A stretch of 12,357 bases of DNA from IMG/VR virus record IMGVR_UViG_2703718790_000029; one strand, 5' to 3'. The notes beneath the pieces were generated by a model. The model saw only the letters and a list, made by a program, of their open reading frames with translations. It was not told where the DNA came from and did no database searches. Below are positions 3,784 to 11,986 of the stretch, one piece after another; position 1 is the first letter of the stretch, and the number at the start of each line of letters is the position of its first letter. A program made the position numbers and the translations under genes. The DNA is from a virus. Its lineage: Duplodnaviria > Heunggongvirae > Uroviricota > Caudoviricetes.

Positions 3784-3880
3784 ACCTTCCTCGGTTTAGT
3801 GTTTTTTTGCGAGTTTAGTGTTTAATAAACCATTAAGTCAAGTATTTGCTTGTTTAGTGATTACTAAAGATAATTACCAC
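3784..3880. promoter_or_regulatory. Divergent promoter/operator region (OR-like)
   Basis: Three direct GTTTAGTG copies (3794-3801, 3813-3820, 3852-3859). Candidate plus-strand promoter TTGCTT 3846-3851, 17-bp spacer, GATAAT 3869-3874, putting the start at about ATG 3881 (leaderless). Candidate minus-strand promoter TTGACT (revcomp of 3836-3841), TAAACT (revcomp of 3812-3817). Confidence 0.5.
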
Positions 3881-4252
3881 ATGCAAAAAAAAGAAATTCG
3901 CCGTTTACGTCTCAAGGAGTGGTTTAAAGATAAAACTCTGCCACCCAAAGAGAAGAGCTACCTATCTCAACTAATGAGTGGGAGAGCCTCGTTTGGAGAA
4001 AAGGCTGCCAGAAGAATAGAGCAAACATACGGGATGCCGGAAGGGTATCTGGATGCGGAATACGCAGAACAACCGGGGGTTTCTCCACCACATGCAGGGT
4101 TAACGTCTAATCAACTGGAATTATTGCAGATTTTTTCAGCCTTCCCTGAGGATGAGCAACGCCAGATAATCAGCGAGTTAAAGCAGAAAAAAGAATCAAT
4201 GGAAGATCTCATAGCGAGATGGATTGCGGCGCAAAAATGCCGCCGCGCCTGA
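3881..4252 (+). CDS. paaR2: PaaR2-like HTH regulator; candidate prophage repressor (cI position)
   Basis: First gene of a three-gene operon with the PaaA2/ParE2-like pair; N-terminal XRE-type HTH-like segment; no Shine-Dalgarno before ATG 3881. The ORF-track start (GTG 3818) is probably an over-extension. Confidence 0.55.
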   Translation: MQKKEIRRLRLKEWFKDKTLPPKEKSYLSQLMSGRASFGEKAARRIEQTYGMPEGYLDAEYAEQPGVSPPHAGLTSNQLELLQIFSAFPEDEQRQIISELKQKKESMEDLIARWIAAQKCRRA

Positions 4253-4272
4253 GTTATAAAACCGGAGGAAAC

Positions 4273-4464
4273 ATGAATAGAGCCCTTTCACCAATGGTTT
4301 CTGAATTTGAAACCATTGAACAAGAAAACAGTTACAACGAATGGCTGCGTGCGAAAGTAGCAACGAGCCTTGCAGATCCGCGCCCAGCAATTCCCCATGA
4401 CGAAGTTGAGCGCAGAATGGCAGAACGCTTTGCTAAGATGCGCAAGGAACGGAGCAAGCAGTAA
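4273..4464 (+). CDS. paaA2: PaaA2-like antitoxin (63 aa)
   Basis: GGAGG at 4264-4268 before ATG 4273; 63-aa product MNRALSPMVSEFETIEQENSYNEWLRAK... matches my recollection of E. coli O157 PaaA2; sits immediately upstream of the ParE-like toxin. Confidence 0.7.
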   Translation: MNRALSPMVSEFETIEQENSYNEWLRAKVATSLADPRPAIPHDEVERRMAERFAKMRKERSKQ

Positions 4465-4465
4465 A

Positions 4466-4744
4466 ATGTTACCCGTGTTATGGCTTGAAAGCGCAGATAC
4501 CGACCTAGATGATATAACTAGTTATATTGCTCGTTTCGACATAGATGCGGCTGAACGCTTATGGCAGCGATTAAGGGGTTGTGTGCTGCCGTTATCCGAA
4601 CATCCGTATTTATACCCACCAAGCGACAGAGTACCTAGCTTGCGTGAGATTGTAGCCCACCCTAACTATATAATTCTATACCGCGTAACAACATCAAGCG
4701 TTGAAGTAGTAAACGTGATCCACGCAAGACGCCAGTTTCCCTAA
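4466..4744 (+). CDS. parE2: ParE2-like toxin (RelE/ParE superfamily, 92 aa)
   Basis: ATG at 4466 lies 1 nt after the antitoxin stop; size and antitoxin-then-toxin order are typical of ParE family modules. The ORF-track start at 4370 overlaps the antitoxin and is unlikely. Confidence 0.7.
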   Translation: MLPVLWLESADTDLDDITSYIARFDIDAAERLWQRLRGCVLPLSEHPYLYPPSDRVPSLREIVAHPNYIILYRVTTSSVEVVNVIHARRQFP

Positions 4745-4826: not shown

Positions 4827-4860
4827 ACTTGACTTAAGTTTAATGTTTATTAAACTAAAA
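4826..4860 (+). promoter_or_regulatory. pL-like promoter with an operator-like element (OL-like)
   Basis: TTGACT 4829-4834, 16-bp spacer, TAAACT 4851-4856. The segment 4826-4855 is an inverted copy of 3820-3844 (shared TACTTGACTTAA ... TTTATTAAAC). Confidence 0.45.
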
Positions 4861-5030
4861 ATACCACCCCGCCCCACAGAACGCAGGGAAATACTTCGAG
4901 TTACCCGGCAGTGGTCAGGGGTTAAGTAGCCAGCCCGAGGCGTATGAACATGACGGCAGGGTTCAACTTTAATAACTATGCAGCAGGTTTTTGTTCCGCT
5001 ACCCCGGCGTTAAGGGGAAATGAGGTCAGC

Positions 5031-5183
5031 ATGGATACTATCGATCTTGGCAACAACGCATCTCTGGTGTACGGCGTGTTTCCAAACCAGGACGGCACGT
5101 TCACCGCAATGACGTATACCAAAAGCAAAACGTTTAAAACCGAAAATGGTGCCCGTCGCTGGCTTGCCAAAAATACCAGCTAA
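5031..5183 (+). CDS. Small hypothetical protein (50 aa), possibly YdaF/YdfA-like
   Basis: GAGG at 5022-5025 is 5 nt before ATG 5031; an in-frame ATG at 4944 would give 79 aa. Family guessed from size and position only. Confidence 0.4.
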   Translation: MDTIDLGNNASLVYGVFPNQDGTFTAMTYTKSKTFKTENGARRWLAKNTS

Positions 5184-5381
5184 ACCATTTATTGGATTAA
5201 TTCAATATTCTTGCTGTAGGGGTATAGCCGAGGCCACCAAAGCCCGGAGGTGGTGAAATAAAACCGGGCACAACACGAAGGCGCATTTCCGGTATCCATA
5301 AAGAGTCGGTCTTGTCTGTTAAATTTAAATGGTGGGAGTGCGCCTCCGGTTGTGAATAACAACACTGCTGTGTGTAGTCTT

Positions 5382-5428
5382 GGCGGCATCAGTTTTTTCT
5401 TGAAGTTCGACTGATGTCCGCCCTTTTT
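5382..5428 (+). terminator. Intrinsic terminator-like hairpin
   Basis: GGCGGCATCAG (5382-5392) pairs with CTGATGTCCGCC (5411-5422), followed by CTTTTT (5423-5428). Confidence 0.55.
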
Positions 5429-5603
5429 AAAGTGAATTTTGTGATGCGGTGAATGCGGCTAAGCGCACGCGGCACAGTTAAAAGTCATGTTAGTCCTTAT
5501 TGGTTTGGGTGGGAAAGCCGACTGTAATTGTTAACTGGTTGCAGTCACCTGGAGGCACCAGGCACCGCATCAACAAAGTTCATTTGTAAAAATGGAGATA
5601 ATT

Positions 5604-5825
5604 ATGATTGCACATCACTTCGGAACTGATGAAATACCACGTCAGTGTGTGACTCCTGGTGATTATGTTCTTCATGAAGGCCGGACATATATCGCCTCGG
5701 CAAACAATATTAAAAAGCGAAAACTTTATATTCGTAACCTGACTACAAAAACATGCATTTCTGACTGCATGATTAAAGTCTTCCTCGGTCGTGATGGTTT
5801 ACCTGTAAAGGCGGAGTCATGGTGA
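5604..5825 (+). CDS. kilR: KilR-like cell-division inhibitor
   Basis: GGAG at 5594-5597 before ATG 5604; 73-aa product; sits upstream of ydaE-racC-recE as in Rac. Identity from size, order and partial sequence recollection. Confidence 0.6.
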
Positions 5826-6442: not shown

Positions 6443-8960
6443 ATGAGCACAAAACCACTCTTCCTTTTACGGAAAGCGAAAAAATCATCCGGTGAACCTG
6501 ACGTCGTCCTGTGGGCAAGCGACGATTTTGAATCAACCTGTGCCACTCTGGACTACCTGATCGTTAAGTCAGGTAAAAAACTGAGCAACTATTTTAAAGC
6601 TGTTGCCACAAATTTTCCTGTCGTTAATGACCTTCCCCCTGAAGGTGAGATCGATTTTACCTGGAGTGAACGCTATCAACTCAGCAAAGACTCCATGACC
6701 TGGGAACTAAAACCGGGAGCAGCGCCAGACGACGTTCACCATCAGGAGGATGCACCGGAAACCGAAGAACCGACGGGAGGCCAGGAAGAAAACGCGCAGG
6801 CAGACGCCCACGAGGATTGCCAGGATTGCGAAGTCTCTGTAGCCACTTTGCGGTTCACACAGCGTCTTCTGCACATTTTTACGTATGCAGCCGGGGATCG
6901 AAAATACCTGCATCATGCCACCCGTGAACAACGCAAACACATTACTGCTCTTGAGATGGATCAGGAAAACAGCTATGTCCAGAATCTGCTGTTGGCCATA
7001 CGCAGCATGGCAGAACCGACAACTCTGGATAATGCCGCCCTGCTCCGCCTGACTGATGCAATTAAGGCAGTGTTCTCTATCACGAAAAAACATCAGCCCT
7101 ATGAATTTAAGAATTTCATTTCAGCCTGGCTGGATACCGAACACATTGATCGCGGTCTTCTGACAAAAGAATGGCGAAAAGGGAATCGTGTTTCACGCAT
7201 CACTCGCACGGCTTCCGGTGCTAATGCTGGCGGCGGGAACCTCACCGATCGCGGCGAAGGTTTCGTCCACGATCTGACATCACTGGCGCGCGATGTAGCC
7301 ACTGGCGTACTGGCCCGTTCAATGGACGTGGACATCTATAACCTTCATCCGGCACACGCTAAACGCATTGAGGAAATTATCGCTGAAAATAAACCACCCT
7401 TTTCTGTTTTCCGCGACAAATTCATCACCATGCCTGGCGGGCTGGATTATTCCCGCGCCATCGTGGTTGCGTCCGTGAAAGAAGCACCAATTGGGATCGA
7501 GGTCATCCCCGCACACGTCACTGAATATCTGAACAAAGTACTGACTGAAACCGATCATGCCAACCCTGATCCGGAAATCGTGGATATTGCCTGCGGTCGC
7601 TCCTCGGCCCCGATGCCGCAACGAGTAACAGAAGAAGGAAAACAGGACGATGAAGAAAAACCACAACCATCTGGCGCAATGGCAGATGAACAGGCAACGG
7701 CTGAAACAGTGGAACCGAATGCAACTGAACATCATCAGAACACGCAGCCGCTGGATGCTCAGTCACAGGTAAATTCTGTTGATGCGAAATATCAGGAACT
7801 GCGGGCAGAACTCCATGAAGCCCGGAAAAACATTCCATCAAAAAATCCTGTCGATGCCGATAAATTGCTTGCTGCATCACGTGGTGAATTTGTTGACGGA
7901 ATTAGCGACCCGAACGATCCGAAATGGGTTAAGGGGATCCAGACTCGCGATTCTGTGTACCAGAACCAGCCAGAAACGGAAAAAATCAGCCCGGATGCGA
8001 AACAACCTGAGCCAGTAGTGCAACAGGAACCGGAAATAGTCTGCAATGCCTGCGGTCAGACTGGCGGGGATAACTGCCCTGACTGTGGTGCGGTGATGGG
8101 CGACGCAACATACCAGGAAACATTCGGTGAAGAGAATCAGGTTGAAGCTAAGGAAAAAGATCCGGAGGAAATGGAAGGCGCTGAACATCCGCACAATGAG
8201 AATGCTGGCAGCGATCCGCATCGCGATTGCAGTGATGAAACTGGCGAAGTCGCAGATCCCGTAATCGTAGAAGACATAGAGCCAGGTATTTATTACGGAA
8301 TTTCGAATGAGAATTACCACGCGGGTCCCGGCGTCAGTAAGTCTCAGCTCGATGACATTGCTGATACTCCGGCACTGTATTTGTGGCGTAAAAATGCCCC
8401 CGTGGACACTACAAAGACAAAAACGCTCGATTTAGGAACCGCTTTCCACTGCCGGGTACTTGAACCGGAAGAATTCAGTAACCGCTTTATCGTAGCACCT
8501 GAATTTAACCGCCGTACAAACGCCGGAAAAGAAGAAGAGAAAGCGTTTCTGATGGAATGCGCAAGCACAGGAAAAACGGTTATCACTGCGGAAGAAGGCC
8601 GGAAAATTGAACTCATGTATCAACGCGTTATGGCTTTGCCGCTGGGGCAATNNNNNNNNNNNNNNNNNNNNNNNNNNNNNNNNNNNNNNNNNNNNNNNNN
8701 NNNNNNNNNNNNNNNNNNACGGTTATGAAGCACAGTTTGGCGTGCTGCCAACTTTCGTTTTTCTGGTTGCCAGCACAACTGTTGAATGCGGACGTTACCC
8801 GGTTGAGATTTTCATGATGGGCGAAGAAGCAAAACTGGCAGGCCAGCAGGAATATCACCGCAATCTGAGGACCCTGGCTGACTGCCTGAATACCGATGAA
8901 TGGCCAGCTATTAAAACGTTATCACTGCCCCGCTGGGCTAAGGAGTATGCAAATGACTAA
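6443..8960 (+). CDS. recE: RecE exonuclease VIII, interrupted by an assembly gap
   Basis: Long acidic N-terminal region and a C-terminal nuclease domain (...[36 protein letters not shown]...[17 protein letters not shown]...). The post-gap reading ends ...[10 protein letters not shown] at 8960 and overlaps the recT start (ATGACTAA). Frame across the gap cannot be verified. Confidence 0.8.
8652..8718. other. Assembly gap (67 N)
   Basis: Run of N characters inside recE. Confidence 0.99.
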
Positions 8961-9818: not shown

Positions 9819-10013
9819 ATGAGATATGACGATGTTAAACCATGTCCGTTTTGTGGTTGTCCATCTGTTACAGTGAAAGCAATTTCAGGATATTACCGGG
9901 CAAAATGCAACGGATGCGAATCCCGAACTGGCTATGGTGGAAGTGAAAAAGAAGCACTCGAAAGATGGAATAAACGAACTACTGGAAATAATAATGGAGG
10001 TGTTCATGTATAA
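9819..10013 (+). CDS. ralR: Lar/RalR-like restriction-alleviation protein (64 aa)
   Basis: Zinc-ribbon motifs CPFCGC ... CNGCES; position between recT and xis as in Rac. Alternative start at ATG 9807. Confidence 0.6.
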   Translation: MRYDDVKPCPFCGCPSVTVKAISGYYRAKCNGCESRTGYGGSEKEALERWNKRTTGNNNGGVHV

Positions 10014-10194
10014 AATAACTGCCACTATTGAAAAAGAAGGTGGCACTCCTACTAACTGGACAAGATATTCAAAATCTAAATTAACGAAATCAGAATGCGA
10101 AAAAATGCTCTCAGGGAAAAAAGAAGCAGGCGTGTCCAGAGAGCAGAAAGTAAAGCTGATAAATTTTAATTGCGAGAAACTTCTGTCCTCGTGA
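10006..10194 (+). CDS. YdaC-like small protein (62 aa)
   Basis: GGAGG at 9995-9999 before ATG 10006, which overlaps the ralR stop (ATGTATAA); sits between ralR and xis as ydaC does in Rac. Confidence 0.45.
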   Translation: MYKITATIEKEGGTPTNWTRYSKSKLTKSECEKMLSGKKEAGVSREQKVKLINFNCEKLLSS

Positions 10195-11712: not shown

Positions 11713-11754
11713 TTTCGGGGAGACGTTTGCAACTAATTGATTTTAAATACAATT

Positions 11755-11777
11755 AAAAAAAGACCGAATACGATTCC
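11755..11777. other. Putative attL core (3'-terminal ~23 nt of sdsR)
   Basis: Placed from the recalled report (Balbontin et al. 2008) that the last ~23 bp of ryeB serve as a phage attachment site. The exact crossover cannot be set without the other prophage end or an unoccupied site. Confidence 0.4.
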
Positions 11778-11857
11778 TGTATTCGGTCCAGGGAAATGGC
11801 TCTTGGGAGAGAGCCGTGCGCTAAAAGTTGGCATTAATGCAGGCTTAGTTGCCTTGC
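11755..11857 (-). ncRNA. sdsR: SdsR (RyeB) small RNA
   Basis: Revcomp of 11755-11857 reads GCAAGGCAACTAAGCCTGCATTAATGCC...CTGGACCGAATACAGGAATCGTATTCGGTCTTTTTTT, matching SdsR as I recall it, including the 10-bp terminator stem and U-tract. Confidence 0.7.
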
Positions 11858-11986
11858 CCTTTAAGAATAGATGACGACGCCAGGTTTTCCAGTTTGCGTG
11901 CAAAATGGTCAATAAAAAGCGTGGTGGTCATCAGCTGAAATGTTAAAAACCGCCCGTTCTGGTGAAAGAACTGAGGCGGTTTTTTT
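11760..11986 (+). ncRNA. ryeA: Possible RyeA/SraC antisense RNA (ends approximate)
   Basis: RyeA is known to be antisense to and longer than RyeB. A plus-strand promoter-like TTGCAA (11727-11732) ... TACAAT (11748-11753) and the terminator at 11948-11986 would bound a transcript of about 230 nt. Inferred, not directly supported. Confidence 0.3.
11858..11900 (-). promoter_or_regulatory. Candidate sigma-S-type promoter of sdsR
   Basis: Revcomp of 11865-11871 reads CTATTCT, resembling the extended sigma-S -10 (CTATACT), a few nt upstream of the inferred 5' end. Confidence 0.4.

Follow-up and report, generated by a model that had tools for sequence, protein, structure and literature searches.

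Introduction

In Escherichia coli K-12, RefSeq annotates on the Rac prophage the non-coding RNA kilS (b4833, 'small RNA KilS'), at 1418405-1418502 and just upstream of kilR. This small RNA (sRNA) was predicted from Hfq RIL-seq data (RNA interactions mapped through ligation and sequencing) and confirmed by northern blot (Bar, Argaman, Altuvia and Margalit, 2021; PMC8175672). The same study found it to be Hfq-dependent and to accumulate in stationary phase, placed its transcription start site (TSS) at 1418502 and an RNase E site at 1418471 (supplementary table 6), named yncL as a partner and classed the RNA as derived from the kilR 5′ untranslated region (UTR), with an independent promoter as a possibility; three RIL-seq interactions only and a low sRNA score were recorded (PMC8175672). 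In the Qin prophage, the homologous dicBF transcript is processed by RNase III as well as RNase E (PMC5069750), and K-12 kilR itself is silenced through NusG/Rho-dependent termination (review PMC13501541). Here we analyze a 420-nucleotide (nt) tract, positions 5184-5603, that ends at kilR in the IMG/VR virus record IMGVR_UViG_2703718790_000029 (12,357 nt; this whole stretch of DNA is called the window below). An original prediction, made from the letters of the DNA, had proposed that the tract could hold a small RNA, an antitermination element or the kilR control region.

The window represents an E. coli lambdoid prophage of the Rac type, and the tract is very probably its kilS-kilR control region, in which the sRNA KilS runs to position 5428 and is followed by a structured kilR leader. 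The region is real and functional, but it is not new, since it consists of a published sRNA and a conserved leader that are already known. The parts of specialist interest are only the paralogy with DicF, an arm identical to part of the core sRNA RprA and a wide modular family of related elements, which we put forward as hypotheses and did not find in the literature searched.

Results

KilS and its terminator

By alignment, the plus-strand segment 5332-5428 is the ortholog of the already known K-12 sRNA KilS (b4833). In a global alignment with K-12 kilS, 92 of 98 positions are identical (93.9%), the differences being five substitutions and one loop indel with no substitution inside the 14-nt core, and the K-12 flanks are 96.7% (5′ side) and 98.9% (leader side) identical to the window. 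When the K-12 coordinates are mapped to the window, the start falls at 5332, the RNase E site at 5363 and the 3′ end at 5428. The original prediction had envisaged a small RNA with a transcript ending near 5428, and the exact mapping of the K-12 3′ end to that position supports it. By analogy with the K-12 ortholog, KilS would be made in this strain as a discrete Hfq-dependent transcript, and cleavage at 5363 would leave a 66-nt RNA with the 5′ start CACUGCUGUGUG.

The intrinsic terminator noticed earlier in the tract is borne out by a hairpin of -19.5 kcal/mol followed by five U residues, with the K-12 3′ end at the last of them. The DNA reads GGCGGCATCAGT...ACTGATG(T)CCGCC at 5382-5422, then C, then TTTTT at 5424-5428, which as RNA is GGCGGCAUCAGU...ACUGAUG(U)CCGCC followed by C and U5 ending at 5428. 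A consensus terminator scan misses this hairpin because the loop limit of the scan is 8 nt and the hairpin loop is longer. The segment 5184-5428 folds better than shuffled sequences (z -3.1), as do KilS by itself (5332-5428; -35.4 kcal/mol, z -3.46) and the downstream segment 5429-5620 (z -3.6). At gathering thresholds, a Rfam scan of the whole window returned nothing in the tract; in an E-value scan, the DicF family (RF00039) matched 5369-5423 with 42.8 bits (E 5.1e-8), below its gathering score of 48, compared with 76.7 bits for K-12 DicF. The covariance-model scan and structure prediction that the original prediction had suggested as a check gave sub-threshold matches to DicF and STnc100 and folds with z from -3.1 to -3.6.

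The GC-rich complementary segments that had been pointed out in the tract exist, each one base lower than first placed, as CCGGAGG at 5244-5250 and CCTCCGG at 5343-5349. Among perfect 7-nt inverted repeats, the GC-rich ones are more numerous than in shuffles (4 observed vs 0.7 +/- 1.1), and all such repeats taken together are not enriched (10 observed vs 6.5 +/- 3.2). Pairing of the two segments is unsupported: the long-range helix is missing from the minimum-energy fold and was rejected, and the pair is unlikely to matter for the primary sRNA because it lies partly upstream of the published KilS start. The block GGAGUGCGC(C/U)UCC was found again in distant relatives.

A structured leader upstream of kilR

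The suggestion that the tract contains the kilR control region proved correct, as 5429-5603 is a conserved structured kilR leader. It is 75% identical to the Qin dicF-dicB spacer, and the alignment between Qin and the window starts at the terminator. In the E-value scan, the Rfam family STnc100 (RF02076) matched 5425-5611 with 37.4 bits (E 1.4e-6), below the gathering score of 47, and the Qin dicF-dicB spacer of K-12 scored 34.4 bits against the same family. A RNAalifold consensus built on 16 diverse leader copies contains 43 pairs; compensatory double changes are seen at 10 of these, and a stem of 5 base pairs (bp) with a pentaloop, CCUGG-AGGCA-CCAGG, is invariant. The leader has the STnc100 architecture, namely an outer helix around three hairpins that is supported by covariation. 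Its outer helix would by analogy be an RNase III site, because the RNase III cut known from dicBF would fall in its 5′ strand.

The leader element of ~150 nt precedes kilR, dicB, at least two other small genes and, in phage P7, terB, and it also occurs in a rearranged order with a KilS-like module before yfdP/yfdQ-like genes. The P7 copy of the leader core (NC_050152.1 72453-72568; 2500-2616 of our locus L126) lies just upstream of terB and also precedes a TciB-like gene for cell division/colicin resistance, within the ban operon of the P1 family, so the leader cassette is found beyond lambdoid phages too. In Shigella flexneri CP182557.1 (locus L164, 5330-5540), an STnc100-like structured element is followed by a KilS-like arm and terminator, and these in turn by a second long helix and yfdP/yfdQ-like genes, an order that is reversed relative to the window. 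K-12 CPS-53 is without this yfdP-linked KilS-like module, the region having been lost.

An RprA-like arm and a family of terminators

The proposed KilS seed, TGCTGTGTGTAGTCTT, occurs once in the window. Its 16 nt (UGCUGUGUGUAGUCUU) are identical to the part of the RprA consensus that cmscan displays in upper case, as most conserved, and their presence was confirmed in K-12 rprA. The RprA model as a whole (RF00034) reaches 24.5 bits where the threshold is 70 (E 2.1, not significant), and the part shared by KilS and RprA is a 3′ block of ~26-34 nt only. Local alignment with RprA gives 24/26 identities for K-12 KilS and an exact run of 16 nt for the window, with scores of 38-40 against a mean of 14 and a maximum of 29 among shuffles (n=3000); some relatives match RprA in 20 of 20 positions. 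The mapped RNase E site of KilS lies 2-3 nt upstream of this block. Papenfort and colleagues reportedly found in 2015 that RprA, too, is cleaved by RNase E to a 3′ form, with a second seed domain for ricI; this domain may be the block that RprA has in common with KilS.

A search for the arm followed by GGCGG recovered 44 genome loci and more than 120 IMG/VR contigs. Most loci are from Enterobacterales, including Escherichia, Shigella, Citrobacter, Enterobacter, Klebsiella and Raoultella as well as Serratia, Pectobacterium, Erwinia, Mixta and Buttiauxella, and we judged a minority from unrelated or GC-rich genomes to be chance matches or contaminant contigs. The arm precedes 65 distinct hairpins, every one of which folds as a GGCGG-closed terminator with a U-run, and from one genomic context to another there is no relation between the sequences upstream of the arm. 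Compensatory changes in the stems are abundant (CAUCAG/CUGAUG, UACCAG/CUGGUA, UCGGCA/UGUCGA, CCACGCC/GGCUGG), as read from per-sequence folds and not from alignment columns. This search fixed the arm by design, and the control was a set of loci collected by one hairpin type alone. There, ~50 of 127 sites carry an RprA-like arm and ~55 of 127 carry ...CACAAC-AGCCACUGCUUU or CACAAC-AGCCACTGCTTT, the rest being minor variants. Two IMG/VR loci (L278 and L277) have the CACAAC arm directly 5′ of GGCGGTACCAG... on the same GGCGG-closed scaffold. The GCCACUGCUUU or GCCACTGCTTT within this arm is presumably the first 11 nt of the RybB 5′ seed, and the CACAAC arm is a possible second case of a prophage sRNA copying the seed of a core sRNA. 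Neither KilS nor any of 12 representative related loci is covered by a Rfam family at gathering score.

Two variants of the module were observed among the related loci. In many KilS-like terminators, among them those of L128, L129 and L131, a long composite hairpin carries a conserved GAAGAUAAUGUUC that resembles a Shine-Dalgarno sequence with an AUG; since the frames that it opens vary in length (2-184 amino acids, aa), it is more probably a motif of the RNA. In the IMG/VR loci L223 and L265, a boxA-like CGCTCTTTAACA stands directly after the U-run of the KilS-like terminator, which suggests that an N-type antiterminated operon can begin with this module.

Taken jointly, these observations leave room for the tentative idea, which we hold to be possible but still on the doubtful side, that KilS and DicF belong to one modular prophage sRNA superfamily across Enterobacterales. 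Its members would have a common GGCGG-closed terminator scaffold with exchangeable 5′ arms and would usually be flanked by an STnc100-like processing cassette. The commonest arms would copy conserved seeds of core envelope-stress sRNAs, one being the RprA 3′ block UGCUGUGUGUAGUC and the other possibly the RybB 5′ seed GCCACUGCUUU, and the prophages would in this way plug into, or compete with, the RprA/RybB regulons of the host.

Proposed function of KilS and the leader

KilS would be made from its own extended -10 promoter (TGtTAAATT), and possibly also by read-through from the early operon. An RNase E cut at ~5363 would remove the 5′ hairpins and leave (C)ACUGCUGUGUGUAGUCUU as the 5′ end of the 66-nt product, beside the Hfq-binding terminator. 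From there the seed could pair with mRNAs in trans, yncL being the only partner named from RIL-seq, and RprA targets may also come within reach of KilS because its seed is the conserved 3′ block of RprA. In cis, the terminator would halt most transcription ahead of kilR, and RNA that reads through would fold into the leader and be cut at the outer helix, the counterpart of the Qin dicF-dicB RNase III site.

Pairing with mRNA was scored by seed-only duplexes against shuffles. The yncL mRNA has two sites complementary to the arm, one at -40 to -16 relative to the AUG and one in the 3′ UTR, with predicted energies of ~-19 kcal/mol that ~1% of shuffled arms attain; for the RprA block, pairing is just as good. 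The predicted complementarity between arm and yncL is consistent with a seed function.

Upstream spacer and promoters

Homology to K-12 Rac and to phage vB_EcoS-666R9 starts at window position 5209, and over 5209-5331 the spacer is identical to K-12 Rac at 119 of 123 positions (96.7%). The spacer from 5213 to 5331 probably holds divergent control sequences. According to genome annotation, K-12 and vB_EcoS-666R9 have sieB, on the opposite strand, in the interval from the DUF1391 gene to KilS, and it was not found in the list of open reading frames (ORFs) of the window. The earlier remark that this is a variable cargo position fits, with sieB located here in K-12 and some phages and missing in the window. 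The TGtTAAATT stretch is identical in K-12, where the reported TSS (1418502) corresponds to window 5332, and for lack of a -35 hexamer it is missing from the results of a sigma-70 scan. A promoter-like site, TTGACT-16-TAAACT, is found at 4829-4856 (+) upstream of the DUF1391 gene. It is a candidate early-operon promoter from which read-through would also feed KilS and kilR; the count of promoter-like sites of this kind is no higher than in shuffles.

Locus setting and coding capacity

The gene order is DUF1391 - KilS - leader - kilR - ydaE - racC - recE - recT, with KilS on the same strand as kilR (Table 1). Loci with 100% identity to the tract occur in strains that include O26:H11 11368 and O103, and at least 80% of the tract is carried by 1755 of 5426 complete E. 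coli genomes. Megablast places the 97-nt sRNA alone in 413 genomes, an undercount because the K-12-type allele is without a shared 28-nt exact word. There is no annotation beneath the tract in the identical RefSeq genomes checked, which include O26, O103 and O157 strains. RefSeq annotates kilR in the identical O26 locus, and the KilR protein is identical to K-12 KilR at 70 of 73 residues.

Table 1. Features of the tract and its surroundings (positions are those of the window; where a row names several genes, they are listed in their order along the DNA).
Feature	Position	Strand	Remarks
Unclassified 144-aa ORF and PaaA2/ParE toxin-antitoxin pair	3818-4744 (together)	+
DUF1391 gene (ydaF/ydfA-like)	5031-5183	+	Family match
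Junction after DUF1391 stop codon	5184-5212		No K-12 Rac homology; sieB slot in K-12 and phage vB_EcoS-666R9
Conserved non-coding spacer	5213-5331		Homologous to K-12 sieB-kilS intergenic region
Candidate extended -10 promoter TGtTAAATT	5317-5325	+	Start 7 nt downstream at 5332, inferred from sequence
kilS, 97-nt Hfq-dependent sRNA	5332-5428	+	92/98 identical to K-12 kilS
RNase E site equivalent (K-12 1418471)	5363	+	Transferred via gap-free alignment of 5′ part
Proposed seed TGCTGTGTGTAGTCTT	5366-5381	+	Identical to most conserved block of core sRNA RprA
KilS intrinsic terminator	5382-5423 (GGCGG-closed hairpin), 5424-5428 (U-run)	+	Homologous to DicF terminator
kilR 5′ leader, structured RNA element (STnc100-like)	5429-5603	+	98.9% identical to K-12 Rac
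Leader outer helix, 21 bp	5431-5451/5563-5584	+
Leader hairpin 1	5455-5459/5465-5470	+
Leader junction helix, short	5471-5473/5517-5519	+
Leader hairpin 2	5520-5528/5538-5546	+
Leader hairpin 3	5548-5552/5558-5562	+
kilR Shine-Dalgarno GGAG	5594-5597	+
kilR (FtsZ inhibitor)	5604-5825	+	PHROG phrog_294 Kil, E 2e-36
ydaE, racC, recE, recT, ralR and antitoxin RNA RalA (RalA on the minus strand)	3′ of kilR	+
xisR, intR, then chromosomal SraC/SdsR locus	Beyond ralR/RalA

The original prediction had seen no convincing coding capacity in 5184-5603, and this holds: only short ORFs overlap the tract, none has family support, and both flanking genes do. It had also called the minus-strand ORFs 5189-5389 and 4976-5170 spurious, in keeping with the fact that Pfam and PHROGs gave no match for either of them or for the short plus-strand ORFs. 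The ATG of the 66-aa minus-strand ORF (5189-5389) lies inside the terminator stem. Its frame is open in 12 of 12 distinct homologs with 95-100% DNA identity, each differing from the window at no more than ~11 of 220 nt. Read by eye, ~12 of 60 aligned residues vary among these homologs; the substitutions look mostly non-synonymous, and the variation suggests an absence of purifying selection on the protein.

Several features lie outside the tract. The 144-aa ORF, a PaaA2 antitoxin (PF21217) and a ParE toxin (PF05016) are inserted on the plus strand between the repressor-side region and the DUF1391 gene, and the PaaA2/ParE module is missing from the otherwise matching O26 11368 locus. The 144-aa ORF has no Pfam match, and we take it to resemble PaaR2, the regulator of the PaaR2-PaaA2-ParE2 system. 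The RalA antitoxin sRNA (Rfam RF02694, 219 bits) is at 10012-10190 on the minus strand, adjoining ralR. The overlapping chromosomal sRNAs SraC/RyeA (+) and SdsR/RyeB (-) at 11751-11895, just past intR, mark the site of prophage integration. A run of X in the translation of the recE frame, at ~8650-8720, corresponds to a masked N run in the window sequence.

Discussion

Several points weigh against reading the tract as a KilS gene that acts in trans next to a kilR leader. All experimental support is transferred from the K-12 locus, which is 94-99% identical, and the KilS promoter is a candidate that is read from sequence alone. The few RIL-seq interactions and the low sRNA score of K-12 KilS mean that its activity in trans may be weak (PMC8175672). 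Between the window and K-12, KilS is less conserved (93.9%) than the leader (98.9%). The seed is largely paired in the fold of full-length KilS, and after cleavage at 5363 the arm at the 5′ end is predicted still to form a small hairpin of 5 bp. The yncL statistic is modest and concerns a single target.

Some of these points would be explained if the RNA were a mere by-product of a cis-acting attenuator that keeps kilR silent, without any function in trans. Its class as 5′ UTR-derived, its three RIL-seq interactions and low score (PMC8175672), the known need for tight silencing of kilR (PMC13501541) and the higher conservation of the leader than of KilS between the window and K-12 all speak for this explanation. 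Against it, the RNA is Hfq-dependent and accumulates in stationary phase (PMC8175672), and the arm equals a conserved block of a known sRNA. In addition, the 14-nt arm stands before 65 terminators with unrelated upstream sequence and varied downstream genes (yfdP-like, dicB-like and kilR), and a kilR-specific attenuator is insufficient because the arm recurs in such varied contexts. We therefore regard a purely cis-acting role as unlikely, while it is the most serious of the alternatives to a control region that includes a functional KilS.

The DicF match in the E-value scan (E 5e-8), together with the same operon position, terminator base and downstream leader, could also mean that KilS is an ortholog of DicF that represses translation of ftsZ. 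We find this very improbable. The 42.8 bits stay below the gathering score of 48, the DicF 5′ arm UUUCUGGUGACG is replaced and the ftsZ-complementary loop differs, and on these grounds a canonical DicF was rejected. Pairing of the KilS loop and arm with the ftsZ initiation region was no better than that of shuffles (z +0.3, with 56-62% of shuffles equal or better), in a crude test that is insensitive, as the DicF loop itself reached -18.8 kcal/mol and z -1.0. Because of its different 5′ arm and loop, KilS is not expected to act on ftsZ.

There is similarly little chance that the leader is an antitermination RNA of the nut or put kind that carries early-operon transcription past the terminator into kilR-recET. 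The leader does lie within the early-left operon and has the invariant 5-bp stem with pentaloop CCUGG-AGGCA-CCAGG, and a boxA-like CGCTCTTTAACA follows the terminator in some distant relatives (L223, L265). But the leader is downstream of the very terminator whose suppression would be its task, its loop does not belong to the GNRA-like boxB type, the window has no identified N-like protein, and RNase III is documented to act on the homologous element of Qin (PMC5069750). With two mismatches or fewer allowed, no boxA-like match was found within or near the tract. The antitermination element that had been offered as an option is unsupported for want of a boxA or an identified N-like factor, and a nut/put-like antiterminator was rejected on the missing boxA and the position of the leader.

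That the tract encodes a small protein, whether the 66-aa minus-strand ORF 5189-5389 or a short plus-strand ORF, can practically be dismissed: the frame is open in all 12 distinct homologs, but this is expected at 95-100% identity and ~12 of 60 residues vary, the ORF has no ribosome-binding site, RefSeq annotates nothing there in identical genomes, and a protein-coding ORF was rejected because there is no match in Pfam or PHROGs and the start codon lies within the terminator stem.

A kilS-kilR control region in this prophage means that a published sRNA and a conserved leader are unannotated in the identical E. coli genomes checked. As a sister of DicF placed before a toxic FtsZ inhibitor, KilS bears on the control of host cell division by cryptic prophages. 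If seed identity with RprA does mean common targets, a prophage sRNA would mimic a core stress sRNA and not act as its sponge, and such mimicry would give a testable handle on the otherwise uncharacterised function of KilS.

Comparison with known systems

K-12 KilS is the same gene and likewise immediately precedes the kilR leader, with an identical promoter stretch and the same terminator and 14-nt core. The flanks of the arm differ, reading CAC-UGCUG...UCUU in the window and CAU-UGCUG...UCCU in K-12, and sieB, which in K-12 lies upstream of KilS on the opposite strand, is missing in the window. In RprA and KilS alike, the common block is immediately followed by the terminator and immediately preceded by an A/U-rich site, which RNase E cleaves in KilS (PMC8175672) and reportedly in RprA. 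The 5′ domain of RprA, which pairs with rpoS and hdeD, and its terminator, promoter and regulation are unrelated to those of KilS, and RprA is a core-genome sRNA induced by Rcs/Cpx whereas KilS is borne by a prophage.

The leader covers the full STnc100 model (RF02076, positions 1-206), which we compare together with the PasD prophage RNAs (Zhu, Shabalina and Storz, 2026 preprint). The two have in common the outer helix, a GGUGAAUGCGGC...GCGCACGCGG hairpin and a CACC-GGAGGCACC-GGCACC hairpin. They differ in that the score of the leader is sub-threshold and in that, with an sRNA terminator on one side and a gene on the other, it is a 5′ leader and not a free-standing sRNA.

DicF of Qin and KilS have the same operon slot, with a DUF1391 gene ahead of it and a gene for a division inhibitor behind. 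Common to both are the UUGGCGG.AUCAGUUUU...CCGCCCUUUUU scaffold of the terminator and a downstream leader (AAAGUGAAUUUUGUGAUG...) that contains an RNase III-type helix, and in both a short form is generated by an RNase E site. They differ in the 5′ arm, which is UUUCUGGUGACG in DicF and CACUGCUGUGUGUAGUC in KilS, and in the loop that gives DicF its complementarity to ftsZ. In the KilS locus, dicB is replaced by kilR, and ydfB and ydfC are missing; K-12 KilS starts from a TSS of its own, whereas the description of DicF is that of a product processed from an operon transcript. Bar et al. (2021; PMC8175672) make no mention of DicF. Among IMG/VR loci with the shared stem pattern there are three arm types, namely DicF-type, KilS-type and a rare third. 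Because the slot, scaffold and leader are the same but the arm and loop differ, and because the arm types are mixed, our hypothesis is that KilS would be a paralog of DicF and not its ortholog.

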